From: an uncultured Candidatus Saccharibacteria bacterium
GTDB taxonomy: Bacteria; Patescibacteriota; Minisyncoccia; Phycocordibacterales; UBA9973
Direction: 5' to 3'
DNA: 64,000 bases
Assembly (NCBI GenBank): GCA_964631935.1
Contig: CAZWAV010000003.1
Span: 10,894 to 74,893, forward strand
Positions 12,683-50,158 of this stretch are shown piece by piece; positions within the stretch are counted from its first letter, which is position 1; each line of letters begins with the position of its first letter. Under the pieces are notes generated by a model, which saw only the letters and a list, made by a program, of their open reading frames with translations, was not told the DNA's origin and made no database searches. Position numbers and translations under genes: made by a program.

Positions 12683-12780
12683 ATTGAAACAAAAATAGTC
12701 ACGAACGGACTAGTCAGAATACTTTACTATAGGGGTGATAAAAAAGCAAGCCCCATATGGGGCTTGCTGGTTCTTCGATT

Positions 12781-17101: not shown

Positions 17102-17150
17102 ATGTGATTGGTGCAAAAAGGCCAATATACATATGTATTATAGAATATGT
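16845..17150. repeat. ~305-bp direct repeat copy A (promoter plus 5' coding end of tail-fibre paralogs)
   Basis: Near-identical to 20401-20708, including upstream tctataatacatatgtatattggcctttttgcaccaatcacatATG and the first ~80 codons. Confidence 0.8.
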
Positions 17151-20659: not shown

Positions 20660-20708
20660 ATGTGATTGGTGCAAAAAGGCCAATATACATATGTATTATA
20701 GAATATGT
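20401..20708. repeat. ~305-bp direct repeat copy B (promoter plus 5' coding end of tail-fibre paralogs)
   Basis: See copy A; only a few mismatches (e.g. gttaagaac vs gtaagatac; gggg vs ggtg in the leader). Confidence 0.8.
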
Positions 20709-33690: not shown

Positions 33691-35451
33691 CTACTCTGAT
33701 TCTTTCCAAGTTGAGACATTGTAAGAGCCCGATGGACCACTTGAAAAATTATTGTTTGAGAGACCAGATTCATAAGTAACACTTGAACCCCCATTTATAG
33801 TAATTCTATACCCAGTTGCTTCTTTTAAAGAAGCCCCGCCTGAAATACTGATTGTGCCATTCTCTGCATACACAACTACTGCTCCAGCACCACCATCAAT
33901 ACTAGCAGCGCTCGATGATGAACTTGTTGTAAGCATCATAATATAGCTACCAGTAACACCAGACCCTGTAGCGTGCCCACCCCCTGATATAGAAATATTA
34001 CCATCAGAAATTATTACAGCATCATTAGTACCATAACTAGGTGATAGTTTAATCTTCCCTCCACCATTAAGTGAAACATTTCCTGTAACCCATAAATTCC
34101 CAGTAACCACAAGAGTTCCTCCTCCACTTACAGTTAAGTCACCAATAATTTTTTTTGGCCCCAATGTGGCACCCGCCCACCCAACATTATAGTTACCATT
34201 ATAAGTTCCTCCTCCTAAGGATTCAGCTTGCCAAGAAGCTATGTTTGCGTCTGATACGGGGAATGTCTGATATACAGGATCGGGTTGATTTATACATGAC
34301 TTATTATTGCCAGTGCCACTCTGGCAATAAATATTACCATTTGAATTTGTATAATTAACCGTATGAGCTTGGGCTGTCCCAGAAACTGTACCTATGTGAA
34401 GCTGATTCCATTGACTACCAGATGACCCGGCTATTAGTCCATTCACCCCGCCAAGATAAACCTGGAAATAGTAATCAAGATTGGACGGTGTAGTATTATT
34501 CCAAGTTCCAGAAAACTGTCCAATTTTCCCAGAACCATTATTATATCCATTACTATTTGCTCCGACCGTGTAATATTTGGTACTTGAAGTGCTGGCATCA
34601 ATAACGATCCAATATGTTGTACCTAATAATAGCAATGGATTTGTCGTAAAAGAAACATCCACCCATCCATAGGAAGTTGTAACCGTAGAAGCATTCAATG
34701 TTCCACTTGCAAAGACTGTCGTACCCGGACTGCCACTTGAATCATTTACAATTTTTACTGTTGCATTACTTGCACTGCCAACCTTTTTTATATAAAATTG
34801 AATTTTATTTAATGGGCTCTCTGTCGACACCTGAAAACTCTGTGCAACATCTTGTGTTGCATTAGCATTACCAAAATTAACATTATTTGTTGGTGTACCA
34901 GTACCATTAGTTTGGTCTGTAGAGACGGCAGGGCTATTCGCTGATATGGCTGTTCCTGTGATAATAGCTGAACTATCCCCTGTAATAGGACCATTGGCAT
35001 AAACATTTCCATTTACAGTACCACTCCCATTTAAATCTATACCTCCCTGACCTACGAGTACACCGTAATTAAAAGAAACCCCCGCGCTAGTACTTATTAT
35101 TGTATCAATCTTTCTTTGGTTTGACCCCATATCACCAAGAGAGACAATTTGCTTTTGGCTACTTGAAATATCAGTAATCGTGGTGGTCGTAGTAGAAGTA
35201 CCTAAAACTAATGTTTCACTAGCACTAATTTGTCTATTATTCCTAATACGATAAAGAGCATCTTCTACGCCTGATTCTGCTAAAAAGTAGGCATTCTTGG
35301 AATTAAAAGTCGTACCTGCTATCTTAAATTCACGAACAGTAGGAGTTATAATACCAACCAAAATAGTTAAACTGATAAAAACGAAAAATATAACGACAAT
35401 CATCATTGCGGCACCACGATTTAGAGGATAGTTTTGTTTAATATTTTTCAT
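33691..35451 (-). CDS. large PilX-N-like pilus-associated protein (putative minor pilin/tip adhesin)
   Basis: N-terminal TM plus AYFLAESGVEDALYRIRNN (PilX N-terminal-like), then ~550 aa Gly/Ser/Thr/Asn-rich beta-rich region; last gene of the pilin operon. Confidence 0.5.
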   Translation of the reverse strand: MKNIKQNYPLNRGAAMMIVVIFFVFISLTILVGIITPTVREFKIAGTTFNSKNAYFLAESGVEDALYRIRNNRQISASETLVLGTSTTTTTITDISSSQKQIVSLGDMGSNQRKIDTIISTSAGVSFNYGVLVGQGGIDLNGSGTVNGNVYANGPITGDSSAIITGTAISANSPAVSTDQTNGTGTPTNNVNFGNANATQDVAQSFQVSTESPLNKIQFYIKKVGSASNATVKIVNDSSGSPGTTVFASGTLNASTVTTSYGWVDVSFTTNPLLLLGTTYWIVIDASTSSTKYYTVGANSNGYNNGSGKIGQFSGTWNNTTPSNLDYYFQVYLGGVNGLIAGSSGSQWNQLHIGTVSGTAQAHTVNYTNSNGNIYCQSGTGNNKSCINQPDPVYQTFPVSDANIASWQAESLGGGTYNGNYNVGWAGATLGPKKIIGDLTVSGGGTLVVTGNLWVTGNVSLNGGGKIKLSPSYGTNDAVIISDGNISISGGGHATGSGVTGSYIMMLTTSSSSSAASIDGGAGAVVVYAENGTISISGGASLKEATGYRITINGGSSVTYESGLSNNNFSSGPSGSYNVSTWKESE

Positions 35452-35454
35452 TTA

Positions 35455-35967
35455 TCAATATGCTCCACGCAAAATTATAGTGTCATAAAAATTCTCTAAC
35501 CTAGAGATCTTACTCCCTGAGTCTTCTAGTGTTAATTCTATTTTTACTGCTTCTCCGTTTGTAGTAGTAATACGTCTAAAAATCAAATTGTCTACTAATA
35601 TATTTTGCCCCAATAAATTGCCGACGAGCACTCCATCTTTATATATATTCAAAGCCCCATTCCCTACAACAAACTTCACAATCATAGCCGTCCCCACACT
35701 ATTGGTACTATTTAATTGCAGTACACCTGGATTAGATCCCATAACACTGTTCGCAATATCCACACTTGAAGCTTGGCGGATTTCCCTTGAAATCCTCTCC
35801 ATCGCAAGAGAACCCGATTCAAGTAAATTACGATTTGAACGAGTTGTGTTAAAAGCACCAAGGACAATAACAAACGAGTTAATAACAAGAACCGAAAGTG
35901 TCGTAAAAATAGCTAGATAAACTATTATTTCAACAAGGCTATATCCATTTTTCTTTATCTTTTTCAT
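35455..35967 (-). CDS. prepilin-type N-terminal cleavage/methylation domain protein (pseudopilin)
   Basis: KNGYSLVEIIVYLAIF prepilin peptidase site (G|YSLVE). Confidence 0.7.
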   Translation of the reverse strand: MKKIKKNGYSLVEIIVYLAIFTTLSVLVINSFVIVLGAFNTTRSNRNLLESGSLAMERISREIRQASSVDIANSVMGSNPGVLQLNSTNSVGTAMIVKFVVGNGALNIYKDGVLVGNLLGQNILVDNLIFRRITTTNGEAVKIELTLEDSGSKISRLENFYDTIILRGAY

Positions 35968-36465
35968 TTAATTAAAAATATCACTAACATAAAAGCCGAG
36001 ATTCTTTGTAGATGTTATACCTCCAGAGACAGGCCAGGAAACCACTACAGAAATCTTTTTAGTCCGAGCATCGAGAGTACCAGAAGAAGCAATGTCATCA
36101 TTTGAATCACGATTCACAGCTGAGAAAACTATAGTGCGAGTAAAAAGTGAGTCAATATTAGGGGTCGCGACAGTTCCTAAAGACCATTTATTTGAACCTG
36201 TATTGAAAGTCAAATAATAATTAGTGTTCAGGTTTAAACTTGAAATATTAGACCAAGAATCATCTCTAATGGATTTCACGGCTTCAGCTCCCTCTTCTAG
36301 CAACAAACTTGCTTGTGTTTGTCTTAAGGCCTGTTTGGATAATTCGATTCCTTTAGTTGAAGCCGACATCAAAGCAAAAATAGAAACTGAAATAATGGCA
36401 CAAGCAATGAGTACTTCGATGAGGCTAAAACCTTTTTTATTATTTTGTTTTAAAAATGATTTCAT
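35968..36465 (-). CDS. prepilin-type pseudopilin
   Basis: KKGFSLIEVLIACAIISV signature. Confidence 0.7.
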   Translation of the reverse strand: MKSFLKQNNKKGFSLIEVLIACAIISVSIFALMSASTKGIELSKQALRQTQASLLLEEGAEAVKSIRDDSWSNISSLNLNTNYYLTFNTGSNKWSLGTVATPNIDSLFTRTIVFSAVNRDSNDDIASSGTLDARTKKISVVVSWPVSGGITSTKNLGFYVSDIFN

Positions 36466-36942
36466 TTAATTTGCACTAATAGAACCAGTCTTGCTGATAC
36501 TAATAGTCTTTTTGCGAGTGGAATCAGAGGTAAGTGCTACTATAATTGTACCATAGTTAGGAGTATCACCAGTTAATCGAGTAAAAATAACATCACTACC
36601 TCCACCATTTAAATTGATACCATTGATTGATGGAATAGTTACACTCGAATCAAATACAAGGGGAACATTGGTTGCATCCCCACTATTAAATACTGATCCG
36701 ATAAAATAGGTTGCCCTATCTGATTGAAAGTGCACCCCGTAATTATTTGAACTAAGTGATGATATTGTATTGTTTCTAGCACTATTTAATAATGAGACAA
36801 CATCCCCCGTTGTGTTATTTAGTGTTTGTTCTCTCCTAAATAGGGAGAGGCTCGGTAATACAATTGCAGCCAAAATACCGATAATACTAACGACAATTAA
36901 TATTTCAATAACACTTATTCCTTTATTTTTCAATATATTCAT
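36466..36942 (-). CDS. type IV pilin-like protein (candidate major pilin)
   Basis: NKGISVIEILIVVSIIGILAAIVLP signature, first pilin after pilC. Confidence 0.7.
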   Translation of the reverse strand: MNILKNKGISVIEILIVVSIIGILAAIVLPSLSLFRREQTLNNTTGDVVSLLNSARNNTISSLSSNNYGVHFQSDRATYFIGSVFNSGDATNVPLVFDSSVTIPSINGINLNGGGSDVIFTRLTGDTPNYGTIIVALTSDSTRKKTISISKTGSISAN

Positions 36943-36944
36943 AT

Positions 36945-38159
36945 CTATTGTATATTACCCATAACTGAGTACATCGGGGAGATCATTGAAACAGCAAAAA
37001 ACCCAACAGCCCCTCCAATAAAGACCATTAACACCGGTTCGATAATAACAGAAAGATCTTTTGTTTTATTATCAACCTCTGATTCATAGAAAGTAGCAAT
37101 ATCAATTAACATTTTAGACAAATTACCTGTTTCCTCTCCCACTTCTATCATCTCTCCCATCATTACAGGGTAAAGATTAGAATTTTCTTTAAATAAGGCC
37201 GACAATGTTCCTCCTTTTTCGATAGAAATCACGGCTTGCCTCATCAAAGTTTTATAATAAACATTCTGAAGAACTTCTTCGGTGATAGTCAAAGCCCTAG
37301 ACATATCCACCCCTGATGACAAGAGAGATGACAAAGTGCGAGCAGTACGTGCAGTATTCACTTCTTTTGCAATGGTACCAATAATAGGTAATCGCAAAAC
37401 CATATAATCAAAATACTTCTTGGTGGCTTCAAGCCTCGTGAACATCACAAAAATTCCAATAATACCTCCAATGACCAGGAGAAACAGTAGTGTGTGATTA
37501 CTTATGGTATCTGAAATCCAAATAATAAATTTTGTGGAACTTGGTAAATCACCACCCAATTCTTTAAATGTTTTAGTTAGAGTCGGAACAACGAACATCA
37601 TCATAAGAACACCAATAATAAATATTGCACAAAGAATAATAGAAGGATACATGAGGGCTCCTTTTATTTTTTTATTTAAATCATAAGATTTTTTTAAATT
37701 CGAACCTACTTCTGCAAGAGCTTGGGGCAACCCCCCAGATTCTTCTCCTGAGTGAACCATAGATACAAATAAACCAGAGAAAACTTTAGGGAATTTCTTC
37801 ATACCATCTGACATGGTACTACCACGATTAATATCTTCAATAAGACTAACCAATACTTTATTCAAGGCGGGATTTTTGGTTTGCTTTTCAAGAACACTCA
37901 AGGCTCGAGTAAGAGATAAACCAGCAGTGAGCATTCCACTTAGATTATTGGTAAATATCATCTTCTCTGACAAAGAAACTCTACTGAAAAGTTCCATCTT
38001 CATCAATGATGATTTTTTTTGATCACCTGCCTCTTCTACAGAGATAGGAATATATCCTTGTTCTCTAAGCTCACGAGCAATAGTAAATTTATCTGCTGAA
38101 TCTTTATACCCTTCTACGATGCTGCCGTCTTTTTTTTGTACTTTATATTTAAATTTCAT
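36945..38159 (-). CDS. pilC: type IV pilus assembly platform protein PilC (GspF family)
   Basis: Two T2SS_F repeats, 3 TM segments, 404 aa. Confidence 0.85.
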   Translation of the reverse strand: MKFKYKVQKKDGSIVEGYKDSADKFTIARELREQGYIPISVEEAGDQKKSSLMKMELFSRVSLSEKMIFTNNLSGMLTAGLSLTRALSVLEKQTKNPALNKVLVSLIEDINRGSTMSDGMKKFPKVFSGLFVSMVHSGEESGGLPQALAEVGSNLKKSYDLNKKIKGALMYPSIILCAIFIIGVLMMMFVVPTLTKTFKELGGDLPSSTKFIIWISDTISNHTLLFLLVIGGIIGIFVMFTRLEATKKYFDYMVLRLPIIGTIAKEVNTARTARTLSSLLSSGVDMSRALTITEEVLQNVYYKTLMRQAVISIEKGGTLSALFKENSNLYPVMMGEMIEVGEETGNLSKMLIDIATFYESEVDNKTKDLSVIIEPVLMVFIGGAVGFFAVSMISPMYSVMGNIQ

Positions 38160-38164
38160 TTTTA

Positions 38165-39922
38165 TTATTCAGAAACAACACGCAAAACTTCTTCGGTTGA
38201 AGTTCTACCTTGGCAAGCTAAGAATATTCCATCTTCAAGCATTGTCACCATCCCCTCTTTCTTGGCCTGTACTTCAACTTCATCAGCCGAAGAACCCTTT
38301 AAAATCATTTCTTTAATTGTCGGAGTAACTTTTAAAACTTCGTGAATTCCAAGACGCCCCTTGTAGCCATTTTCTGATTCTTCGCTTGGTACGGGTTTAT
38401 AAAATGGGACTTTATCCCAGGTTGCATCTGGATCCACAACTTTTTCTTTCTTTAAAATCCCAAGCATGCGATCAAGGTCTACCACATTTCCAAGAGTCTT
38501 TTTCTCTGCTTCACTTAAAAAATATTTTTCTTTATTCGAATCGAGAACTCGAACAAGACGTTGAGCAATAATATTTTTAACAGTCGAAACAATGAGGAAT
38601 GGCTCCACCCCCATATCAATCATGCGGGGAATGGCTCCAGCTGCTGAGTTGGTGTGAATAGTAGATAATACCAAGTGACCAGTAAGCGAAGCATTCACCG
38701 CAAGTGAAGCAGTCTCTCCATCACGAATCTCTCCCACCATTATAATATCTGGGTCTTGACGAAGAAGAGTGCGAAGACCATTAGCAAAAGTCAGACCAAT
38801 TTCAGATTTTGTCTGAGTCTGATTTATGCGATTCATTTGGTATTCTATCGGATCTTCAACGGTTGAAATATTCACATCTGGAGTATTTAATATATCTAGC
38901 ATTGTATATAGTGTCGTCGTTTTACCCGAACCCGTCGGACCAGCACAGAGTAACATTCCACTTCGTTGCTTCATACCATCATGAATACGCTCAAGGGCTT
39001 CACCATGGAAACCAAGAGTCTCAAGAGAGAACCCTTTTGAATTTTCACGCAAGATACGAATAACAGTCTTCTCTCCGAAATATGTTGGTAGAGTAGAGAC
39101 ACGAAACGATACGTTACCATCATCGTTAACAATTTTGAAACGTCCATCTTGTGGCAAGCGCTTTTCATCAAGCTTTAGACTAGAGAGCACTTTTATACGT
39201 GCAACTATGCCAGGAGCTGTATCTTTAGGTAGTACCATGGCATCATGCAAAATACCGTCGATACGATATCGAACTATGAGCGAAGTCTCTTCTGGTTCAA
39301 TATGGACATCGGATGCTCCTTGCAAAATGGCGTGAGAGATTAGAGTATCGACAATTTTAACTATTGGTAAATCTTCAGCAAGTTCTTTGAGTTCTTTTTC
39401 TGACTTTTCTTCACCTGGTGTACCACTTTCTAGTATTGGCTTGAGTGTTGCAGATTCTTTTTTAATAATGTCCTCGAAATCAGCTTGTAGACTTTTCTTA
39501 TATTGAGTCAAGGCTTCCTTTATAGAGTCAGAGCTTGTCATTCGTGGGAGAATTTTAAGCCCTACTTTTTTCTTTATGAAGTCTATAACAGAAAGATTGT
39601 CGACATCGAGCATGGCGACCTCGAGACCAGTTTTACTTTTCTTATAAGCAATAATGTTATTGCTACGGGCAATTGGTTCAGGAATAAGAGAGAGTACAGA
39701 AGGATCAATCTTCTCACCTTTCAAACTAACAAAAGGAATGCCGAGCGATACAGCTTGCATGCTATTCCAATCTTTTTCTGTAAGTTTTCCATCGCTAATG
39801 AGAATATCTCCGATCGATTGAGAAGTTTCTTTAGATTTTTTGACTGCCATAGCCACATCAGTTTTACTGACGAGCCCTGAGCTATTGAGTAGATCTACTA
39901 TTGTCTTTTCATCAACATGCAT
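38165..39922 (-). CDS. pilB: type IV pilus assembly ATPase PilB (GspE family)
   Basis: N-terminal GSPII_E_N domain, Walker A GPTGSGKTTT, Asp box, His box, Walker B ILVGEIRD. Confidence 0.9.
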   Translation of the reverse strand: MHVDEKTIVDLLNSSGLVSKTDVAMAVKKSKETSQSIGDILISDGKLTEKDWNSMQAVSLGIPFVSLKGEKIDPSVLSLIPEPIARSNNIIAYKKSKTGLEVAMLDVDNLSVIDFIKKKVGLKILPRMTSSDSIKEALTQYKKSLQADFEDIIKKESATLKPILESGTPGEEKSEKELKELAEDLPIVKIVDTLISHAILQGASDVHIEPEETSLIVRYRIDGILHDAMVLPKDTAPGIVARIKVLSSLKLDEKRLPQDGRFKIVNDDGNVSFRVSTLPTYFGEKTVIRILRENSKGFSLETLGFHGEALERIHDGMKQRSGMLLCAGPTGSGKTTTLYTMLDILNTPDVNISTVEDPIEYQMNRINQTQTKSEIGLTFANGLRTLLRQDPDIIMVGEIRDGETASLAVNASLTGHLVLSTIHTNSAAGAIPRMIDMGVEPFLIVSTVKNIIAQRLVRVLDSNKEKYFLSEAEKKTLGNVVDLDRMLGILKKEKVVDPDATWDKVPFYKPVPSEESENGYKGRLGIHEVLKVTPTIKEMILKGSSADEVEVQAKKEGMVTMLEDGIFLACQGRTSTEEVLRVVSE

Positions 39923-39935
39923 ACTATATAGTATA

Positions 39936-41675
39936 TCATATCACTTCAGCTTGATAACACTTTTCACAATAAATTATCTCCGGTCTATCAGGTGAATAAC
40001 TGGTCTCAAATTCTACTTCACATTTACCCTCATGAATATGTCCCGATTTATCGCACATACATGATCTGTGCCAGAGTTTCATGGGGTTACGTTGTGATAT
40101 CCTCTCGTAATGTCGGCAATTTGGGCAAAGGTGAGGTATAGGTATTTTTAAATTACGATAAAATTCAAGTTCAGTTTTTGTAATTTTAAATGCCGTTGAA
40201 CATTCGTGTGAGCAGCTTCCTTTATGAGCACAGCTTATAATGTCATCTAGTATAGAATCTGTAACTTCTTCAATAGAATCAGCAAGATCGCTATCATTTA
40301 TAGTAATTACATAATTTCTCTCTGTATTTTTCATAAGCTTAATACCATTTAAGCTTGCTTCATCTACAGAGATGGGCTTGAGTTCTTGGGCTACTGTTTC
40401 ATTATAGAGGAATGGCGACAATTCTATAGGGAAAAATTCTCCATATCCATATACCCTACCGCCCTGATCAATATATTTCTTTTCGTCCATATGGGCTTTT
40501 ATTTTTTCAATAGTAGATTCGTAATCCTCTTTCGAATATTGTTTATTGAGAATGCAGTATTGTTTATTGCGTAAGCCTATACATGCAAATAGATTTGAAC
40601 AATTATGACAATTATAACTATACTCAATATTGTAACCACCAAATATAAAACGTGAAAACAAAACCCTATTACCAGGATACGCACTAGATACCTCATAACA
40701 ATCCACAGAAGAAAGTCCGGAGTGGTCTATCCCATAGCAATTTTTAACAGAAGAATAAACGAGCCATAGGTTTTTTGAGTCTTCTGCCCCTCCAAATATC
40801 GAGAAGGAATTTTTACAATTCTTTGACTCTTCTATGTCATCCCCTGTTACCTCTACAGATTTAATTATCTTTGCATAACGTCTTGGGAATTTTTTATTAA
40901 AATCAGAAAAATTTAATTTTATTTTTTGTAATTCTGAGTATGAAGATAGATTATATTCTTTCATTTTATTTGTATACTCTTCTCGTGAATACTGTTCGTT
41001 AAATATACAATATGATTTATTTGATAGGTTCACACAACCAAAACAGTCATGGCAATTCCGACAATTAAATAAGAAAGCGCTACCATAACAACCCTCACAA
41101 TATCTGCTGTAGAGTAATTTGGAACAAGAGATACAATCTATTGTCTCATAGTTCCACTCACTCTTTGAAACCCAATAACAATCAACTAAAAATTTAGAGT
41201 TAAATATAAATGCAGAATAAAGTGAATCCTCATTAAAATCTCCTCCTATTACTAAATAACAATTCTTGTTACCCTCCGTTATGCTACAGTAATCACTATT
41301 TACTGGATTAATATTAAATAATCCTATATCTGGGACTTCTCTCCATAAGCGATTGATCTGATCAAAAAAGTTATTAGAGAAGTCGTAGTCGCGCCCATAA
41401 CTTAAACCATCCCACGTATCACCCCACCATGCACTGTGGCAATATATAGTTGCATTCTTGTCAGGAGAGAATGTGCTTAGCATGTCTTCGCCATGATTTA
41501 GCGCTTGGCATTTGCTACGATACAGAGTTCTTTCATTCCTGAAAGCCATTCTTCTTATTAGACTACACTCCGAACAGAATGTCGGTGGAGGGACTTTTAT
41601 CTTCTCATAGAAAGAAAAATCTTCGGCTTCAATAACGAAATTATTCTTACAGTTCTGGCAGTTTTTTGTTTCCAT
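39936..41675 (-). CDS. Cys-rich (about 45 Cys) multi-CxxC protein, unrecognised family, paralog A
   Basis: 579 aa, no signal peptide. N-terminal and C-terminal zinc-ribbon-like modules share FY.K.K.P.P..C..CR...R.......L(Y/W).R.C. Central internally duplicated block C.NC...F.C..L.NK.YCI.N.QYS.E.Y. Confidence 0.6.
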   Translation of the reverse strand: METKNCQNCKNNFVIEAEDFSFYEKIKVPPPTFCSECSLIRRMAFRNERTLYRSKCQALNHGEDMLSTFSPDKNATIYCHSAWWGDTWDGLSYGRDYDFSNNFFDQINRLWREVPDIGLFNINPVNSDYCSITEGNKNCYLVIGGDFNEDSLYSAFIFNSKFLVDCYWVSKSEWNYETIDCISCSKLLYSRYCEGCYGSAFLFNCRNCHDCFGCVNLSNKSYCIFNEQYSREEYTNKMKEYNLSSYSELQKIKLNFSDFNKKFPRRYAKIIKSVEVTGDDIEESKNCKNSFSIFGGAEDSKNLWLVYSSVKNCYGIDHSGLSSVDCYEVSSAYPGNRVLFSRFIFGGYNIEYSYNCHNCSNLFACIGLRNKQYCILNKQYSKEDYESTIEKIKAHMDEKKYIDQGGRVYGYGEFFPIELSPFLYNETVAQELKPISVDEASLNGIKLMKNTERNYVITINDSDLADSIEEVTDSILDDIISCAHKGSCSHECSTAFKITKTELEFYRNLKIPIPHLCPNCRHYERISQRNPMKLWHRSCMCDKSGHIHEGKCEVEFETSYSPDRPEIIYCEKCYQAEVI

Positions 41676-41676
41676 A

Positions 41677-42105
41677 TTACTTTAACTTACCGAAGTGATA
41701 ACCATCTTCTTCGTCGTTTATTTCTTGGATCCTTTCTTCTTGTTCTGTTATATAAGCTTCTTTGTTATTTAAAGTAGCTTCAACCCAAAACTTATAAGTT
41801 GGGTTCATAACAGCTGTATCCATACGAGCGATCATAGGAGTGGTGTAAGGATGAAGTCCTCCTACATATTTAATAAGCCTATCTGAAAGCTCTTTCTCTG
41901 TTGTAAGCATTATCATATATTGCTCTACATCCTGGAGAACCCCCTTCCATGGGTAAATAGAGCCAATAGGCCAATAATCTACAGACACAGTCAGCTTCTC
42001 GTTTATACAAGAAAGGCCTATAGATTTAGCTTCTTCTATAGATGCGCATGTCGTGTATACAAATACTATTTCTTTTGGGGCATTATTTACTTTTTCTACA
42101 AGCAT
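41677..42105 (-). CDS. cutA: CutA1 divalent-cation tolerance protein (PII-like fold)
   Basis: IVFVYTTCASIEEAKSIG...SIYPWKG...EQYMIMLTTEKELSDRLIKYVGGLHPYTTP matches CutA. Confidence 0.6.
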   Translation of the reverse strand: MLVEKVNNAPKEIVFVYTTCASIEEAKSIGLSCINEKLTVSVDYWPIGSIYPWKGVLQDVEQYMIMLTTEKELSDRLIKYVGGLHPYTTPMIARMDTAVMNPTYKFWVEATLNNKEAYITEQEERIQEINDEEDGYHFGKLK

Positions 42106-42147
42106 ATAATTATGATACGCTTTGCTTTTGCCTTTTACAAGTAAAGA

Positions 42148-42720
42148 TTATTTGGGTAGAGCTGTTGCCTGAATTTCTTTTTTTGACATATATCTATGAT
42201 TTATCATAAGCAGTACTATCAGGGCTTGTGCAGTTAAGGCCATAACTGGAATAGTAATATACCCGAATTCAAAGACATACCGTGCTGCGCATGTAATACT
42301 TCCTTCAACATAATTAGAACAAGACAGATCTGATGCTCCTCCATTCTCTACATATATATGATAGACAGAGACAAGCATTCCAAGAAAAGCGACAATGGCA
42401 CTTAGAGTTATTAGTTGTTTTTTTTCTTTCCATAAAGCTATCCCTAGTATAAGTACTTGTGGATATATAAAAAATCTCTGGGCCCAACATAATTCGCAAG
42501 CTGCAAATCCAACAACTTCTGAATAAAATAGCGAGAGAGCAACAGAAGATAATGCAATACCTAAAGCAAAATAAACCCCATATTTATGAAAGAACATAAG
42601 CATAGGGTTAGTGTTTGATCTTTTGAAAATTAAATTCCCCAGGACAAAAACAAAGACAACTTGCATGGCTATGGTCCCCATAGCCAGAAGATAATTTAAT
42701 GTCTCTACGTATGCTGGCAT
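42148..42720 (-). CDS. disulfide bond formation protein B (DsbB/BdbC family)
   Basis: 4 TM helices; CELCWAQRFFIYPQ in the first loop region (cf. B. subtilis BdbC CELCWYQRI) plus a second Cys pair CSNY......C. Confidence 0.65.
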   Translation of the reverse strand: MPAYVETLNYLLAMGTIAMQVVFVFVLGNLIFKRSNTNPMLMFFHKYGVYFALGIALSSVALSLFYSEVVGFAACELCWAQRFFIYPQVLILGIALWKEKKQLITLSAIVAFLGMLVSVYHIYVENGGASDLSCSNYVEGSITCAARYVFEFGYITIPVMALTAQALIVLLMINHRYMSKKEIQATALPK

Positions 42721-42721
42721 A

Positions 42722-43291
42722 TTATTGAGGAAGGGTGTAACCTATCATCTCGGCCAGGAATTCAAGAGGTACTTCACCTTGTGTTTGAGCACCAGGTTCA
42801 AATGTCCAGACATCACCTTTTTTTACTGGATCAGTTGGACTCTTTATAGAAAACTTATATCCAGGAAATACCCATGTCTTGTAGTATTTTGAAGCAATCT
42901 GCGGACAGATTGGAGCTTCTCCAGCAACTCCAGGTTTGACCTGACAAATTGTAGGCTCAGATGTTGATTTTACAGTAACGCCATCTTTAAACATCCAAGT
43001 AGGATAACTTTCTATTTTCTTTTCTGTACAAATTGGAACTACTGATTGGTCTGGATTAGAACATTCCACATAAGGAAGGTATTGCTTAGCGGTACCAAAT
43101 AGAGCTTTTTCAGCCTGGCAGTGAGGACACCAGAAGGCCCCGTAGAACTGAGCTCCTCCAGACTTGAGAGCTTTAGCAAAATCGTCTAGTTTATTTGGTC
43201 CTTTTGCTTTATTGGTCGCAAAACCAAGACCAGCAACAATTACAACAATAGCCACTATTAACAATATAAATTGGGTTTGTTTTGATTTCAT
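42722..43291 (-). CDS. membrane-anchored thioredoxin-fold protein (VKOR/DsbB partner-type, YGAxWCPHC motif)
   Basis: N-terminal TM; FYGAFWCPHCQ active site resembling the Trx-like domains fused to bacterial VKOR homologs; C-terminal Cys-containing extension. Confidence 0.6.
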   Translation of the reverse strand: MKSKQTQFILLIVAIVVIVAGLGFATNKAKGPNKLDDFAKALKSGGAQFYGAFWCPHCQAEKALFGTAKQYLPYVECSNPDQSVVPICTEKKIESYPTWMFKDGVTVKSTSEPTICQVKPGVAGEAPICPQIASKYYKTWVFPGYKFSIKSPTDPVKKGDVWTFEPGAQTQGEVPLEFLAEMIGYTLPQ

Positions 43292-43304
43292 ATACTATAT
43301 ATTA

Positions 43305-44318
43305 CTACTCTTCTTTTGGTTTGTCATCCTTCTTCTCATTGTTGTGTCCATGGGCATCTACCTCATAAGCAGTGTTCTGTGCTTCAAAGAAATTAACAAG
43401 CTCATATACGTCTGTAGATGTTGCCATCCATTTTGCAGGATTTGTAACATTAAAGTGAGTTGGCAAACCTAGCTCTTCAAGTCTACGGTCAGCTACATAT
43501 TGAACATATTGATTTACATAATCAGCATTAAGCCCAAGTATTCCCTTTGGAAATAGATCTTTGTTGTAAGCAACTTCGAGATTTACTCCTTCGATAACTA
43601 TGTCTCGGATTTCATTTGCAAATTCTTCAGTCAGTAATTCAGCATTCTCTTCAAGTATTGTGTGTATAAGATTGATACCAAATTTTAGGTGGAGTGATTC
43701 ATCGCGAATAACCCAGTTGATCATTGACCCTAGATTGCGGAGCTGGTTACGCTGACGGAAAGAAAGCGCCACCATGAATCCAGAGTAGAACCAAATTCCT
43801 TCCATGACAATATTGGTAGCAACAAGGTTACGCAAGAAATCTTTCTTCCCTTCTGGAGTTTCAATATCGAGAGTATCCTCAGTCATACGAAGAAGATACT
43901 TCTTGATGAAATCTTCTTTCTTCTCCATTGAATCAAGTTCAAGGTGCACATTGTAAACCTTCTCGCGATCAAGTGGGAAAGTTTCAAGAACATATTCAAA
44001 TGATACACAGTGGTTCGCTTCTTCGAACATCTGCTTTGCTAAGTATAAGTGACACTCTGGACTCTTGATGTAAGGATACACTCCAAGAGCAAGTGAGCGA
44101 TTCACAATAAGCTCAGCTGGGTTAAAGAATGCCATGAGAAATTCGACAGCATGACGCTCATCATCGGTCATAGCTTTCCAGTCTACCAAGTCTTCCCCGA
44201 GAGCGATCTCGTGCGGGAACCAAGTATTTCGAACAGCCTGATTGTACAATTCATAAGCCCACTTATAGTGCATGGGATGAAGATTCATATCTTCGGGAGA
44301 TGCTTTTCCTAAAATCAT
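43305..44318 (-). CDS. nrdB: class I ribonucleotide reductase small subunit (R2)
   Basis: Ferritin-like diiron motifs E..H (EEANHCVSFEY; MEGIWFYSGF...), 337 aa. Confidence 0.85.
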   Translation of the reverse strand: MILGKASPEDMNLHPMHYKWAYELYNQAVRNTWFPHEIALGEDLVDWKAMTDDERHAVEFLMAFFNPAELIVNRSLALGVYPYIKSPECHLYLAKQMFEEANHCVSFEYVLETFPLDREKVYNVHLELDSMEKKEDFIKKYLLRMTEDTLDIETPEGKKDFLRNLVATNIVMEGIWFYSGFMVALSFRQRNQLRNLGSMINWVIRDESLHLKFGINLIHTILEENAELLTEEFANEIRDIVIEGVNLEVAYNKDLFPKGILGLNADYVNQYVQYVADRRLEELGLPTHFNVTNPAKWMATSTDVYELVNFFEAQNTAYEVDAHGHNNEKKDDKPKEE

Positions 44319-44341
44319 ATATATTTTTTATTAACTAGTAA

Positions 44342-46936
44342 TTACTGACAACTTTCACACAAAAACTTATCATTTGGGTCTTCTGGTAGATATACATTTG
44401 AGGAGGCACTTGGTGAATTCGTGGTCGTAGATTGACCAACGTTTGTAAGATCCATTTCCTTTTGGACTATATTTACAGGACTTGCAACTACAGGCTCTGA
44501 TACTTCTTCTGTTAAGATAGTATTCACCTTAGTATCTCTCAGTGCGGCGAACCCCCTACGTCCCATGGCTTCAGATTTATTTACACGAGTTGTAGATTGC
44601 TCTGCAGAGTGACGAGGCTTCATGTGTAAGTAGTAAGTAGTTTTCAATCCTTTATCCCATGCGCTTGTGTAGATATTCATAATCTCATCTATATCACGAA
44701 TATCAAGATACATGTTACGAGAGATTCCCATGTCCACCCATTTCTGTGCACGAGCTGCAACTTCTATAAATGCATAAGGAGAAACAGAGAAAGAAGTTTT
44801 ATATATACGCTTGATGTGATCTGGAATCTCAGCGATATCTGCAATGTCTCCATGGTGTTCTAGTATCTGTTCACGAACTTTTTCCCAAAGATTTTCTTTC
44901 TGGAGAGCAGAGACAAGGTTTGGATTTATTTCAAGATACTTACCTGAGATTTTATTTCTCGAAAACATTTGTGCAAATCTTGGATCAATACCAGGTGCAG
45001 TCCCCGCGACAAGTCCGATATTTGCATTTGGTGCAATAGCAAGAAGAGTGGCATTACGTATTCCCTTCTTTACCTTTGCTCGAACTTTATCCCAATCAAG
45101 AGTAGGTAAAATTTTTGCAGAATCTTTTTTAGTTAGAAGTTCACGTCCACGCTCAAGTTGCAACTTGTCCATCGTATCTATTGGCACGTGACCTTTCGCC
45201 CATTCTGAACCTTTGAAATTTTTGTATGCACCACGCTCTTCGGCTAAGTCTGCACTCTCATCGATCGCCATATAAGAAATAAATTCAAATACTTGATCTG
45301 AGAAATCAAAAGCTTCTTTATCTTCATATGAGTAACCGAGCTGTTCAATAGCATCAGAGAATCCCATGAGACCTAGTCCAACGGCACGATTCTCAGAATC
45401 TGCACGACGAGCTTCTTGTATAGGTAATTCATTGATGTCTACCAAGTTATCGAGTTGTCTTATCGCAAGACGAGTACTGTCCTCTAATCTGTGCCAATCT
45501 ATCTGACCATTCACAATGTGACGAGCTATATTTATAGACACAAGGTTACATACAGCTACATTGTCACGATCAGTTGGAAGAGTAACTTCTGTACAAAGGT
45601 TTGAACAGTGGATAGTCCCAGTGTTGTTGTTGAGGGCACGTACATTTATAGTGTCCTTCCAGGTTAGCCATGGATGTGAAGTAGTTTCAAGAGAAACCAA
45701 TATGTTCTTGTATTGCTGACGAGCTGGGATAACGTTATATAGCTTCATTTTTCCGGCTTTAGCCTTCTCAACATACTCATTGTAACGCTTAGAAAATTCC
45801 TGACCATAAAGCTCATTTAGGTCTGCAACCTCTTTCGGATCAAATAGATACCAGTCATCACCATTAAGAACTCTTTTCATGAATTCATCTGATATATATA
45901 CAGCGGTATTTGCAGTACGAGCACGACGATAGTCATCGCCATTGTTTTGCTTGAGATCTAGGAAATCTTGGAAGTTTAGATGCCAGTTCTCCATATAGAA
46001 ACATAAAGCACCTTTTTTCTTTCCCCCACGTTGAACAGCACGGACAGCAGAGTCGATGATGTGCATGAATGGAATTGGTCCAGATGAAACTGTGTTGTTT
46101 GATTTCAGAAGTGAACCTTCGGCACGAAGTTTTGTAACTGATAGACCGATACCTCCCGTTGCTTTTGAAAGAAGTAAAACATCGGAGACAGTTTTACCGA
46201 TGTGCTCCATATCATCATGAATTTCCATTAAGAAACAGTTTGAAAGTTTTGGGTGTGGAGTACCAGCACCGATGTTTGATGATCCAGCAGAAAGATATTC
46301 GAGTGCAGACATCTTTGCGTAAAACTTTTTCGCCCACTCTGTAGGATTACTTTCGTTGAGTGACATACCCATCGCAACTCGCATCCAGAAATATTGTGGG
46401 GTCTCGAGTGGTGCTTGTACTTCATCCTTCATAAGATAGCGATTGAGCATTGTCGAGAGTCCAGAATATTTATACAAATCATCATTATCAATATTTAAAC
46501 TCTCTGAAAGTATATCTAAATCAAATGCAGTCGCCATTCGTGCATCGAGTAATTTCTTTTCAACAGCGTTTTGTATATATTCTTTGAAGTGAGCAGCGTG
46601 AAGTTTATTAAATTCTTCTTTAGTTATAACTGCTGCTTCGTTATCAGGATCATAATCCCCCATTACTTTCTTATATATAACTTTCAGAAGTAATCTAGTG
46701 GCAATTTTATCAAATTCTAGATCGTATTGAGTATTTTGAAGAGCCGCATTGATTGTAGCGAGATCTAATTCTTCAGTTGTAATACCATCGTAAAGAGTAA
46801 GTCTAGTTTCTGTTGCGATTTGGATAACTTTACTTATTGGATCAGTCATTCCGTAACATGCGCGCTCGATTGATTTGTTGATTCGGTCGGCATTAAAGGA
46901 TGCTTTTGTTCCGTCTCTTTTTGTGATGGTTGTCAT
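44342..46936 (-). CDS. nrdA: class I ribonucleotide reductase large subunit (R1) with N-terminal ATP-cone
   Basis: ATP-cone (KRDGTKASFNADRINKSIE), active-site CSNLCTEV, C-terminal Cys pair (..CESCQ). Confidence 0.9.
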   Translation of the reverse strand: MTTITKRDGTKASFNADRINKSIERACYGMTDPISKVIQIATETRLTLYDGITTEELDLATINAALQNTQYDLEFDKIATRLLLKVIYKKVMGDYDPDNEAAVITKEEFNKLHAAHFKEYIQNAVEKKLLDARMATAFDLDILSESLNIDNDDLYKYSGLSTMLNRYLMKDEVQAPLETPQYFWMRVAMGMSLNESNPTEWAKKFYAKMSALEYLSAGSSNIGAGTPHPKLSNCFLMEIHDDMEHIGKTVSDVLLLSKATGGIGLSVTKLRAEGSLLKSNNTVSSGPIPFMHIIDSAVRAVQRGGKKKGALCFYMENWHLNFQDFLDLKQNNGDDYRRARTANTAVYISDEFMKRVLNGDDWYLFDPKEVADLNELYGQEFSKRYNEYVEKAKAGKMKLYNVIPARQQYKNILVSLETTSHPWLTWKDTINVRALNNNTGTIHCSNLCTEVTLPTDRDNVAVCNLVSINIARHIVNGQIDWHRLEDSTRLAIRQLDNLVDINELPIQEARRADSENRAVGLGLMGFSDAIEQLGYSYEDKEAFDFSDQVFEFISYMAIDESADLAEERGAYKNFKGSEWAKGHVPIDTMDKLQLERGRELLTKKDSAKILPTLDWDKVRAKVKKGIRNATLLAIAPNANIGLVAGTAPGIDPRFAQMFSRNKISGKYLEINPNLVSALQKENLWEKVREQILEHHGDIADIAEIPDHIKRIYKTSFSVSPYAFIEVAARAQKWVDMGISRNMYLDIRDIDEIMNIYTSAWDKGLKTTYYLHMKPRHSAEQSTTRVNKSEAMGRRGFAALRDTKVNTILTEEVSEPVVASPVNIVQKEMDLTNVGQSTTTNSPSASSNVYLPEDPNDKFLCESCQ

Positions 46937-46987
46937 GCTTTAAAAAATATTTATGGCACATTAATAATAGTAGTTCGTGTCTCTCGG

Positions 46988-47002
46988 GAGTATATTATAC
47001 TC
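46988..47002. promoter_or_regulatory. palindrome gagtatattatactc about 50 bp upstream of nrdA start (candidate operator)
   Basis: Near-perfect 15-bp inverted repeat in the nrdA 5' region; NrdR-box-like AT-rich core but odd-centred. Confidence 0.25.
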
Positions 47003-47160
47003 TCAGTATAAGTTATATTCCAAGTGCATAATGGAAAATTTGCAACTATAGCCATAGACATATCGTTTCGTCAACATGACCTTTACACCACACATAAAAA
47101 GTCGTTCTAACATAGCATATTTTGAGTCAAAAATTAGCAAAAAATTTCACATTTAAAAAA

Positions 47161-47190
47161 TTCTAAAAAATTTGCAAATTTTTTAGAATT
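47161..47190 (-). terminator. AT-rich perfect palindrome after Cys-rich paralog B (weak terminator candidate)
   Basis: ttctaaaaaatttgcaaattttttagaa followed on the coding strand by a T-run. Confidence 0.35.
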
Positions 47191-47211
47191 TTCAGTGGAT
47201 AACTTTTTGTT

Positions 47212-48963
47212 TTAGAGTACCTCCGCCTGGTAACACTTCTCACAGTAGACTTTTTCAGGCCTTTCTGGCGCATAGCTAGTCTCAAACTCGACTTCACAGT
47301 GATGATCTGCATGGAAATGACCATTTTTGTCGCACATACAAGACCTATGCCACAGTTTACGGAGTGGACGAAGATCAAATCTTCTTTTGTATCGACAATT
47401 TGGACATTTTCGTGGAAGTGGAATATTTTCTTTCCTATAAAAAGAAAGTTCATTCGGTGTGAGATTGTAATTTTTTGAACATAGGACACAAGCGAATATT
47501 TCATTCAAGAATGTATCAGATACTTCTTCTATCCTATCTGGGATATTAGAATGAGGAATTGTCTCTTTGCCAAAAGTTCCAGGAAGATTTTCTTCCCAAT
47601 GCCAGCCCTTTGCCAATACTTCTTCTTTGGTTAATGGATCATAAAGATTTCCTTGAGTTTCATTATAATACACTGGTGCAATGGATGGTGGGAAAAATTC
47701 TCCGTATTCTTTTGTATTTATCATGTGTTTAATAATTTTTTCTTTGAGTTCTAAGTACTCTTCTTTTGAATATTTTTTGTTAAATATCATATACTCCCCT
47801 TTCTTTACTGAGACACACCCAAAAAGATTTTGACTGTTCTGGCAAGTATCAGAGTATTCGACATTCATATCATCATAACAAAGGTGACAAAATTTACAGT
47901 TTGGAATTCGAGTGCATCCCTGGCATTCGTAACAAAGTTCAATATTATATCCTATATGATAAACATCCATCGAATCTTTTATATCAATCCCTCCGTAAAT
48001 ATATTTGCAGTTTTCTCCTTTATCTATTTCAAAGGATTTAGTAATATTCTTACAATCAAAGAGCAGAGACCCGGTGGAATTAATATTTCTCTCACTAATG
48101 ACATAGCGATGAATAGAATAATTATGAATTAAATTATCAAATTCCTTATTTAACCCTTCTCTAATTAAATATGAGGATAAATCAAATTCTTTTATTTTCT
48201 CTAAATATTCTTCACGAGTATACTGCTCATTTTTAAATACATAGCTTTTGTTGCGTAAATTTGAAGACATGAAACAATCAGTGCAACCCTTGCAATCGTA
48301 ACAGTAATAACAAGACGAGCAATCTTTTAAGAAAATACCATACTGACATTGATAAGAAGTTCGAGAGTCAATTACTTCATATAACCTTTCTCCTTTTTCT
48401 GCAATAAAACCACAGTCCATGAGGTCACGGCAATTTTTCATTGTCCATGTACTATACATTATATTCTCACCATCAAATGCACAAAATGACATGTATACGT
48501 TTTTATTATTACCCGAATGGTTTGTATACTCTGAATTCGTACTATTCTTATTTAGTAATGCCATTCTTGGAACTTCATGCTGAAGCTCCGAAAACTGTTC
48601 GAAGAAAGGTCTTGAGAAATCAAAATTCTTGCCATATGAGGATGAGTCCCATTTATCACTCCACCAACACTCATTACAATAAACTTTAAAGGGTTTATTT
48701 TTAGAATAGATGGTAACCATACTTTTCTGACAAAGATCACAAGTTCTTTTGTATAAAGTTCGTTCATTTCTCCATGCATACCTACGTTGTTGTCTGCATT
48801 CAAAACACCATGTCGGTGGCGGAACTTTAATTTTCTCATAGAAGGCGAAATCGTCCGGTTCAATATTGAAGGAGTTTTTGCAGTTCTGACACTCTCGGGA
48901 TTCTGTTTGCATACTATATATAGTATAGCTATTATGCTTTTTTATACAAGAAACGGAAAGCAA
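47212..48963 (-). CDS. Cys-rich multi-CxxC protein, unrecognised family, paralog B
   Basis: 583 aa, collinear with paralog A (identical module order; C-terminus ...KLWHRSCMCDK.GH.H....CEVEFETSY.P.RPE..YCEKCYQAEV conserved); overlaps the MFS gene stop by 32 nt. Confidence 0.6.
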   Translation of the reverse strand: MLSVSCIKKHNSYTIYSMQTESRECQNCKNSFNIEPDDFAFYEKIKVPPPTWCFECRQQRRYAWRNERTLYKRTCDLCQKSMVTIYSKNKPFKVYCNECWWSDKWDSSSYGKNFDFSRPFFEQFSELQHEVPRMALLNKNSTNSEYTNHSGNNKNVYMSFCAFDGENIMYSTWTMKNCRDLMDCGFIAEKGERLYEVIDSRTSYQCQYGIFLKDCSSCYYCYDCKGCTDCFMSSNLRNKSYVFKNEQYTREEYLEKIKEFDLSSYLIREGLNKEFDNLIHNYSIHRYVISERNINSTGSLLFDCKNITKSFEIDKGENCKYIYGGIDIKDSMDVYHIGYNIELCYECQGCTRIPNCKFCHLCYDDMNVEYSDTCQNSQNLFGCVSVKKGEYMIFNKKYSKEEYLELKEKIIKHMINTKEYGEFFPPSIAPVYYNETQGNLYDPLTKEEVLAKGWHWEENLPGTFGKETIPHSNIPDRIEEVSDTFLNEIFACVLCSKNYNLTPNELSFYRKENIPLPRKCPNCRYKRRFDLRPLRKLWHRSCMCDKNGHFHADHHCEVEFETSYAPERPEKVYCEKCYQAEVL

Positions 48964-50158
48964 GCCCTGAACAGATTATAAGAATAGAGGCTATGACAAG
49001 TGGTGTCGTCGGAGCAAGTGATGCTGCGATAAATCCAGATAGTATGGCAGGTATAGCTTGAGCAAGGGCTTGGACGGATGAACTTATACCCATGATCTCT
49101 CCCCTCTGATCGGCAGGAGAAGCTTTCGAAAGTAAGCTATTCATGTTGGCCATAGTCAGCCCTGTGCATACAGAGAAGAATGGTGGTATTAAGAATAGTT
49201 GCCAAGCATGTGTAGGTAAGAAATATGTAAGGACCATGACTCCTGCTCCAATAAGTGAGTAACGTATAATCGCAGGTTCGGTAAATCTCTTTGCAAATGC
49301 TCGAGTAAGTACTGCTTGAGTGAACACCCCCCATATACCGACATATGCAAAGAAGTCACCAATGTTACCTTGAGTAAAATTAAATTTTTGAATTAAGAAT
49401 ACTCCGAAGAATGTAGTAAAGAAAGTGAACCCACCAAAGAATATGAAATTCGTAAGGAATATTGTACTCACACCTTTCATCTCCATGGCTTTTTTAATAT
49501 TTGAAAGTGATTTACCCCAAGTAAGACGTTCCTTCCTTAGATTTTTATTTGTCTCCGGAACAAGGAAGAAGACAGAGAGCATATTTATACCAGCAAGTAT
49601 GGCTGCAAAATAGAATGGTGTCGCTGCTGTGAACCATGACATCACGGATGGATCAGAAAGCTTACCTCCTATATATGGACCAAGAATAAATCCGAGTCCG
49701 AATGCAGCACCAAGCATACCGAAATTCTTCGCTCTATTTTCTGGTTTTGATACATCCCCTATCATTGCTTGAGCAACAGAAATATTACCTCCAGTTATGC
49801 CATCAAAAAATCTAGAGAAGAATAGTAGTGGAATATTCTTCGTAATTATTGCAAAAGCAAATACTACATAGGATATAGCTGTACCGAGAAGCGATAAAGC
49901 TAAAATCTTTTTCCTTCCATATTTGTCAGAAAGCTGACCGAGAATTGGGGTGGCTAGGAATTGCCCTATAGGATACACAGCTATAAGTAATCCTAGTAGC
50001 ATGTACCCCTGATTTATAGAAGTACCAAAAGGCAACATGTACTCGATCGATGCTGGATTCGCAAAAAGCTGAGGTATAACAGGAATTAAAATACCGATCC
50101 CTAAAAGATCGATAAACACTGTCAGGAAAATTATTATCAAAATCTTATTCTTAAACAT
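48932..50158 (-). CDS. MFS transporter (12 TM, drug:H+ antiporter-like)
   Basis: Motif A-like GQLSDKYGRKK, 408 aa, 12 predicted helices. Confidence 0.85.
   Translation of the reverse strand: MFKNKILIIIFLTVFIDLLGIGILIPVIPQLFANPASIEYMLPFGTSINQGYMLLGLLIAVYPIGQFLATPILGQLSDKYGRKKILALSLLGTAISYVVFAFAIITKNIPLLFFSRFFDGITGGNISVAQAMIGDVSKPENRAKNFGMLGAAFGLGFILGPYIGGKLSDPSVMSWFTAATPFYFAAILAGINMLSVFFLVPETNKNLRKERLTWGKSLSNIKKAMEMKGVSTIFLTNFIFFGGFTFFTTFFGVFLIQKFNFTQGNIGDFFAYVGIWGVFTQAVLTRAFAKRFTEPAIIRYSLIGAGVMVLTYFLPTHAWQLFLIPPFFSVCTGLTMANMNSLLSKASPADQRGEIMGISSSVQALAQAIPAILSGFIAASLAPTTPLVIASILIICSGLAFRFLYKKA

Follow-up and report, generated by a model that had tools for sequence, protein, structure and literature searches.

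Two cysteine-rich paralogs and their domain architecture

The stretch of DNA analysed here, further referred to as the window, comprises 64,000 nucleotides of an uncultured Candidatus Saccharibacteria bacterium (contig CAZWAV010000003.1). It contained two paralogous genes coding for Cys-rich proteins, named A (39936..41675, minus strand) and B (47212..48912, minus strand), each being a member of an orthologous subfamily (A-type and B-type, respectively); in the gene orders given below, members of their family are denoted F. Protein A consists of 579 amino acids with 35 Cys residues (6.0%). The mechanical open reading frame (ORF) call of B starts with a TTG codon at position 48963, resulting in 583 amino acids with 38 Cys residues (6.5%). 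The N-termini of the homologs of B align at the ATG codon at position 48912 (MQTESRECQNC), which is most likely the start of B, judging from this alignment, and which gives a protein of 566 amino acids with 37 Cys residues. An earlier note on this DNA had proposed lengths of 579 and 583 amino acids, the former of which stands and the latter most likely not, and about 45 Cys residues (8%) per protein, which is more than the numbers counted. It had further reported an overlap of the upstream paralog with the stop codon of an MFS transporter gene; starting from ATG 48912, B is separated from that stop codon (at position 48932) by a gap of 19 nt. That both ORFs exist and are collinear paralogs was confirmed by their identity of 41% end to end (BLASTP, E 3e-143). 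Also, no signal peptide, as claimed before, and no transmembrane (TM) segment were found in A and B, the maximal Kyte-Doolittle hydropathy over 19 amino acids being 0.86 and 0.93, respectively. AlphaFold2 models were obtained for both A (pLDDT 79, pTM 0.81) and B (pLDDT 83.8, pTM 0.85).

Both proteins are built in the order Z-S1-S2-L-Z', in which Z and Z' represent homologous double zinc-finger modules, S1 and S2 duplicated units predicted to be solenoids, and L an acidic alpha/beta linker, all encoded on the minus strand. In A, the N-terminal module (residues 1-118; 41322..41675) contains a first finger (C6, C9, C34, and C37, conserved at 98-100% in 181-550 sequences), an Arg-rich helix, and a second finger of a variant type (C56...H61...C79-H80). 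This module is followed by the predicted solenoid unit S1 (residues 119-262; 40890..41321), composed of approximately nine 12-residue rungs and helices, the rungs ending in NC.NC.DCFGCVNL.N.SYCI.N.QY..EEY, and by unit S2 (residues 263-400; 40476..40889), an internal duplicate of S1 according to hhalign. The linker (residues 401-476; 40248..40475) contains the conserved motif YGEFFP..(I/L)SPF.YNET, with conservation blocks of 0.75-0.77, a median net charge of -5, and an isoelectric point (pI) of 4.6. In the C-terminal module (residues 477-579; 39939..40247), which hhalign relates to the N-terminal one, finger 1 consists of C482, C492, C517, and C520, with C488 as an additional, less conserved Cys, and finger 2 of C552-x17-C570-x2-C573 together with one of C539, C541, H546, and H548. 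The residues C482, C539, C552, C570, and C573 are conserved at 99-100%, and C492, C517, and C520 at 91-92%. Similarly, B contains an N-terminal module (48559..48912) in which a CxxC-x24-CxxC finger precedes an exact CxxC-x17-CxxC finger (CDLC...CNEC; Cys residues 25, 28, 53, 56, 75, 78, 96, and 99 in the 583-amino acid numbering), a unit S1 (48121..48558) with six Cys residues in a run, at every third residue (CSSCYYCYDCKGCTDC), a unit S2 (47710..48120), mapped from A by global alignment, an alpha/beta linker (47506..47709), and a C-terminal double zinc-finger module (47215..47505).

The relatedness of the terminal modules and the internal duplication of the central block, both proposed in the earlier note, were supported by profile comparison. 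Indeed, the N- and C-terminal modules are mutually homologous (hhalign probability 99.6%, E 3e-24), a central 45-amino acid repeat is duplicated internally (probability 99.8%), and the whole units of about 120 amino acids, S1 and S2 (A residues ~123-241 and ~272-392), match each other with a probability of 99.9% (E 2.6e-37). Each terminal module consists of a CxxC-x24-CxxC finger, an Arg-rich helix (CR..RR...RNER, with invariant R42, R46, and R49), and a second finger, the two fingers being fused into a module of about 76 amino acids. B has the exact CxxC-x17-CxxC form of the second finger, as do about 47% of 550 family members, and the three extra Cys residues of this form (59, 79, and 82 in A numbering) co-vary (phi 0.84-0.99). 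In the A-type second finger, His and Asp replace two Cys residues, resulting in a Cys/His/Asp variant, and the C-terminal modules of both A and B keep C-x17-CxxC, with C.C...H.H in place of the first pair. Conserved polar residues of the proteins are K137, E149, D165, and D315.

These modules resemble the Pfam fingers zf_Tbcl (PF13451) and zf_Tbcl_2 (PF23477), the latter matching TIGR04272 (CxxC-x17-CxxC domain), as the Cys spacing is equal, and exactly so in the N-terminal module of B (C75-x2-C78-x17-C96-x2-C99 in the 583-amino acid numbering). In contrast to these models, which represent single small fingers, the family possesses two fused fingers at both ends of a protein of 570 amino acids. 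A and B themselves gave no match with either model at E<=1. With 29.7 and 27.1 bits, respectively, orthologs P0284 and P0364 score above the gathering threshold of zf_Tbcl (24 bits), and P0290 and P0384, with 30.8 and 27.5 bits, above the cut-off of zf_Tbcl_2 (27 bits). At E<0.01, 28 of 82 family members matched zf_Tbcl and 31 matched zf_Tbcl_2. NCBIfam TIGR04272 was found in orthologs with 24.5 and 22.9 bits, which is below its cut-off of 36 bits, and a 47-amino acid finger query retrieved two matches only from a protein collection. The terminal fingers are probably zinc-binding, to judge from their Cys spacing.

The central units display a period of 12 residues in S1. Of the 6,011 S1 Cys residues in 550 sequences, 5,923 (98.5%) share a single phase of a three-residue lattice; where these positions lack Cys, they contain Ser, Thr, Val, Leu, Gly, or Asn. 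Such a one-phase lattice is the signature of a very narrow beta-helix with small inward residues, and S1 and S2 would accordingly be solenoids of about 120 amino acids, with rungs of 12 residues and every third residue pointing inward. The antifreeze beta-helix of Tenebrio molitor (PDB 1ezg) is built likewise, from rungs of 12 residues in which every third position is taken by a small residue facing inward; this concerns a resemblance in fold class and not homology. In the Tenebrio antifreeze protein, Cys i and i+6 form disulfides across the core. In the family, on the contrary, Cys i and i+6 are mutually exclusive (phi approximately -0.5), namely -0.49 for residues 181 and 187, -0.52 for 187 and 193, and -0.52 for 193 and 199, for which reason cross-core bracing by disulfides as in the antifreeze protein was rejected; moreover, the family lacks a signal peptide and a Thr ice-binding ladder. 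Several i/i+3 and i/i+12 Cys pairs are positively correlated, although the mean phi over all pairs is weak (0.15 and 0.05, respectively), and stacked CxxC pairs are predicted to form metal staples on one or the other side of the helix. The left-handed beta-helix of hexapeptide acyltransferases (LpxA, LpxD, GlmU, and PglD) was compared as well; its hallmarks, hexapeptide [LIV]-G-x4 repeats (Pfam Hexapep) together with a significant fold match, were not found in the family.

Most of the Cys residues would be zinc ligands of the four terminal fingers or, within the solenoid, residues of the core and stacked CxxC staples. Because the best-conserved Cys residues occur in CxxC...CxxC zinc-finger arrangements, and because the central ones, located in the inward-facing lattice, exchange with Ser, Val, and Leu, most of them probably have structural roles instead of being redox-active thiols. 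If true, this would represent a bacterial, probably cytoplasmic beta-helix with a 12-residue Cys lattice, otherwise known from the insect antifreeze protein, with zinc fingers as caps and, probably, metal instead of disulfides as staples.

A Cys-lined solenoid core might also bind a column of Zn, Cu(I), or Fe and serve as a metal store or detoxifier. The copper storage proteins Csp1 and Csp3 are four-helix bundles, and metallothioneins are small unstructured peptides; they have in common with the family a protein core lined with many Cys residues, whereas no sequence or fold match between them and the family was found. We consider such a storage role very unlikely. The number of central Cys residues ranges from 9 to 35, and their free replacement by Ser, Val, and Leu fits packing better than a fixed metal column. 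Furthermore, within the A-type and B-type subfamilies, outward and inward positions of the solenoid show the same degree of conservation (0.77-0.86), and strongly conserved outward surfaces and old paralog identities (see below) are not expected of a bulk store. A ferredoxin-like Fe-S protein was discarded too, given the absence of the motif CxxCxxCxxxCP and of a Pfam Fer4 match, which likewise argues against metal storage.

Family size, annotation, and paralog arrays

Searches with A and B retrieved at least 7,977 and 6,093 clusters at 90% identity, respectively. At 50% identity, at least 3,654 clusters were found at E<=1e-3, including 1,423 at E<=1e-30, and the GTDB species genomes contained at least 574 matching stretches. 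All named sources of the family belong to the Patescibacteria, mainly to Paceibacteria lineages, and comprise Nomura-, Lipton-, Staskawicz-, Jorgensen-, Wolfe-, Kaiser-, Sungii-, and Niyogibacteria, Minisyncoccia, and Paceibacterota; the label Saccharibacteria is carried by some third-party metagenome-assembled genomes (MAGs) and the label Gammaproteobacteria by one contig of 2 kb. For A, the database matches consisted of one 100% match and full-length homologs of 52-78% identity, in Patescibacteria MAGs. These, as well as every other name-carrying copy, were annotated as hypothetical protein. When A and B were compared with Pfam (E<=1), NCBIfam, PDB sequences (as single sequences and as a family profile), PADLOC, and PHROGs, no significant match was obtained, and Pfam gave none at all for the two sequences. 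Matches with BsaP (E 0.026), Elf1 (E 0.057), and Med15 (E 0.019) were treated as noise. As to anti-phage and phage families, PADLOC gave no match and PHROGs only matches with E>=0.011, and no relatives were present in IMG/VR and GenBank phage records. Literature searches turned up no description of the family either. A and B thus belong to a real, very large family without functional annotation, which makes it a novel object. The earlier statement that the family is unrecognised holds for the whole proteins, including A and B, but not for the terminal modules of their orthologs, which match zf_Tbcl and zf_Tbcl_2.

The genomic context of the family was assessed in 78 loci (+-8 kb) from other GTDB species genomes, of which the ORFs were called and clustered. 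These loci hold 203 family copies, with two or more copies in 46 loci, and 123 of the 124 consecutive family pairs are located on the same strand, with a median gap of 4 bp. The largest array, on contig JALLOO010000001.1, holds at least 15 co-directional copies within 27 kb, with just one gene among them that does not belong to the family. The latter (L067, 3215-4393; approximately 12412-13590 of the contig) encodes a 392-amino acid P-loop (GPRQVGKT) ATPase-like protein that is unrelated to the TraD-like neighbour discussed below.

The paralogs within these arrays are old and conserved across genomes. Indeed, the closest relative is found in another genome for 97% of the members, the median identity being 45% to the closest array-mate and 58% to the closest protein in another genome, and B-type orthologs are 70-89% identical over 120 clusters. 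A syntenic locus from a congeneric relative (L062), with the gene order MFS-F-F-nrdA-nrdB-dsbB-F, can be compared with window positions 39936-50158. The flanking genes correspond closely (NrdB 96%, NrdA 89%, and MFS 84% identical), whereas the family genes at matching positions share no more than 40-45% identity with A and B, indicating that different paralogs occupy the same slots. Between A and B, the consensus sequences agree at 41% of the positions in S1, S2, and L, versus 56-66% in Z and Z'. In groundwater and sediments, the Paceibacteria, with their tiny genomes, rank with the most abundant bacteria and also with the least understood ones; a family that is maintained in this way, with at least 15 copies on one contig and paralogs kept at 58-89% identity across genomes, is likely central to their biology.

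The explanation that we tentatively prefer for these data is that A and B diverged long ago within a large family of Patescibacteria, mainly Paceibacteria, whose members are cytoplasmic beta-helix proteins stabilised by metal that serve as scaffold or binding proteins. Zinc-stabilised, paralog-specific binding or scaffold proteins are our best guess at their role. The shared terminal modules would act as a generic docking part, and the paralog-specific surfaces of solenoid and linker, strongly conserved within each subfamily, would determine with which partner or ligand, or at which position of a hetero-oligomer, each paralog operates. Paralog-specific surfaces combined with shared docking modules would explain why genomes keep operonic arrays of two to at least 15 old paralogs.

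Gene neighbourhoods and alternative roles

Among the 78 loci, the commonest neighbour of the family was a TraD/VirD4/TrwB/HerA-like P-loop ATPase (Pfam TrwB_AAD_bind, T4SS-DNA_transf, DUF87, and TraG-D_C). It was adjacent to family genes in 19 loci and at most three genes away in 26, always co-directional with the family, with gaps of 3-373 nt, and often present on both sides of arrays. A long form of this ATPase carries a finger that is recognised by zf_Tbcl_2 (55 bits, Pfam) and TIGR04272 (59.6 bits, NCBIfam), and a short form displays an N-terminal TM segment in examples (L004, L034, L054, and L069). A regular expression for the finger motif, run over the ORFs of 158 loci, matched only the ATPase and the beta-helix family. 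The neighbour thus belongs to the superfamily of the TraD/VirD4/TrwB and HerA/FtsK ATPases, and it shares a zinc finger with the family. It differs from known TraD/VirD4 systems in that no other type IV secretion parts recur near the family, and in that the neighbouring ATPases are soluble or single-TM forms peculiar to the candidate phyla radiation (CPR), which are also found without the family. These neighbourhoods weakly suggest that the family works together with soluble, finger-bearing TraD/VirD4/HerA-like P-loop ATPases.

The two main contexts of the ATPase are dnaK-ATPase-F-ATPase-dnaJ and secF-sigma-ATPase-ATPase-F. The former was seen in one lineage (L025, L029, L033, L036, and L075), in the order dnaK, long ATPase, family gene or genes, short ATPase, and dnaJ. 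A link of the family with DnaK and DnaJ was not retained, as it looks confined to the synteny of this lineage, DnaJ and DnaK being at most three genes away in 11 and five of the 78 loci, respectively. A CPR gene pair is widespread in metagenome loci without the beta-helix family (among L112-L161, e.g. L117, L118, L145, L150, and L161), and consists of an ATPase form of about 420-470 amino acids, directly followed by a TraD/VirD4-like form of about 520-660 amino acids with a CxxC-x17-CxxC finger.

The association with this superfamily of DNA translocases and coupling proteins raises the question of nucleic-acid handling. According to this alternative, the double-finger modules would grip DNA or RNA, the paralogs would differ in substrate, and the proteins would act together with DNA-translocating ATPases, for example TraD/VirD4/FtsK-like ones, in the uptake or processing of scavenged DNA. 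Several features are in line with it, namely the Arg-rich helix after finger 1 with its three invariant Arg residues, the finger shared with the neighbouring ATPase, the weak similarity of the latter to the DNA-import ATPase CedD, the pilus genes pilB, pilC, and pilins starting 13 nt after A, and the presence of two ribonucleotide reductases (RNRs) in the window. Furthermore, CPR bacteria are thought to scavenge DNA (PMC6744442). Nevertheless, this role is unlikely. As a whole, the proteins have a slightly acidic pI (6.3), and their modules, with a net charge of 0 and +3, are not basic enough to lend clear support to nucleic-acid binding. No nuclease, helicase, or known DNA-binding domain was detected in A and B. 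The zf_Tbcl and CxxC-x17-CxxC fingers are without any known ligand, and PilB occurred near the family in only two of the 78 other loci, for which reason a link with pilus genes was rejected.

Alternatively, the family members may be translocated cargo. In that case, a VirD4-like ATPase would recognise the terminal modules and export these proteins, which lack a signal peptide, to the host, and the arrays would represent an effector repertoire. Indeed, diversified paralog arrays adjoin ATPases that resemble coupling proteins and that include a form with a TM segment at its N-terminus, the C-terminal tail of the proteins is very well conserved, the set of paralogs differs among closely related genomes, and Paceibacteria are host-dependent (PMC10936435). 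However, the orthologs are unusually conserved compared with most effectors, as illustrated by the B-type ones mentioned above, and four Cys4 zinc fingers suit a cytoplasmic protein. In addition, genes for VirB4- or VirB6-type channels do not recur near the family, and the ATPase pairs are also common in loci that lack the family. Altogether, export as cargo seems distinctly improbable.

Several observations weigh against the preferred reading of A and B as metal-stabilised scaffold or binding proteins. Firstly, the frequent exchange of core Cys residues with Ser, Val, and Leu implies that many of them are not obligate ligands, and both the proposed zinc geometry and the stacked CxxC pairs are predictions from sequence statistics. 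Secondly, A and B themselves reach no Pfam threshold, and the finger models of Pfam and NCBIfam are designated as only probable and have no assigned function. Thirdly, the low net charge of the modules, mentioned above, counts here as well. Lastly, the ATPase does not occur in this 64-kb window, is at most three genes away in only a third of the family loci, and, when metagenome loci are centred on the ATPase, is accompanied by the family in only 14 of 80, mostly beside its closest ATPase relatives. Distant ATPase pairs, consisting of a TM form and a finger form, occur without the family, and part of the ATPase adjacency could reflect inherited synteny.

A more far-reaching version of the preferred reading, which must be regarded as a long shot, is that the family confers specificity on a Paceibacteria machine not seen before. 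In such a machine, arrays of paralogous beta-helices, capped by zinc fingers and with columns of metal-thiolate sites in their Cys-lined cores, would dock via their shared CxxC-x17-CxxC modules on the ATPases with the same finger, and DNA or protein would be assembled, translocated, or processed at the host interface.

In the window itself, the genes between the two paralogs (41677..46936, minus strand) code for a class I NrdA with ATP-cone, NrdB, a TM-anchored CPHC thioredoxin-like protein, DsbB, and CutA1, and the genes outside them for MFS and PilB, which agrees, on the basis of Pfam, with the identities given in the earlier note. From this arrangement, that note had proposed a dedicated service of A and B to class I RNR or to the DsbB/thioredoxin-like machinery, either as metallo- or redox chaperones or by donating electrons. 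In favour of this role are the Cys-richness of the proteins, the position of family genes on either side of nrdA-nrdB-(trx)-dsbB in both the window and the congeneric locus L062, and cutA located 1 nt upstream of A. Another CutA adjacency was found in locus L018 of a Jorgensenbacteria MAG, the only other one among the loci examined, where a 101-amino acid CutA-like ORF (2163-2468; 31% identical to the CutA of the window) lies inside an array of eight family copies.

However, within the 78 loci, NrdA was encountered near the family in only three, and NrdB, DsbB, thioredoxin-like proteins, and CutA in one each, mostly in L062. This rarity of RNR and redox genes as neighbours is essentially what the earlier note had named beforehand as evidence against its proposal. 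In L062, moreover, the slots around these genes hold different paralogs, as described above. No thioredoxin, glutaredoxin, NrdH, or ferredoxin signature was present in A and B, and no thioredoxin-fold profile or structural match to them was found; their conserved Cys residues form zinc-finger patterns. Furthermore, the region belongs to a long series of co-directional genes, in which neighbours lie 0-42 nt apart and only nrdA is preceded by a larger gap (275 nt). This series continues into pilB, pilC, and pilins, and gene adjacency in it therefore carries little information. This indicates that the nrdAB-trx-dsbB-cutA genes between A and B reflect local synteny and not a conserved functional link, and that a dedicated role in RNR or disulfide metabolism is highly improbable. 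As the RNR link is a local accident, experiments should rather be directed to metal content, oligomer formation, and the TraD/VirD4-like ATPases.

Other genes in the window

Directly downstream of A, the window contains a type IV pilus operon (33691-39922, minus strand) with pilB, pilC, and three short pilin-like ORFs, which also holds an ORF of 586 amino acids without Pfam match. The genes for the TM-anchored CPHC thioredoxin-like protein and DsbB are located 1 nt apart (42148-43291, minus strand) and their products resemble a pair that forms disulfides outside the cytoplasm, here in a CPR bacterium; the CPHC protein matches thioredoxin only weakly, below the Pfam cut-off. At a distance of 12 kb from the class I nrdAB genes, a second RNR is encoded (58945-61218, minus strand), which is class II-like and contains an ATP-cone, RNR_Alpha, and a B12-dependent RNR insertion domain, so that two RNR classes are present in a small genome. 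An Rfam scan of the window retrieved two tRNAs only. Two large ORFs, of 747 and 1,167 amino acids (14882-17125 and 17180-20683, minus strand), each contain a Peptidase_S74 domain (chaperone of endosialidase) of the tailspike or fibre type, the larger ORF coinciding with a local rise in GC content to 0.46. Similarly, a GC-rich stretch (0.43) harbours an ORF of 1,391 amino acids (27583-31758, minus strand), with a C-terminal peptidoglycan-binding domain (PG_binding_1) as its sole Pfam match, which may encode a surface or host-attachment protein.

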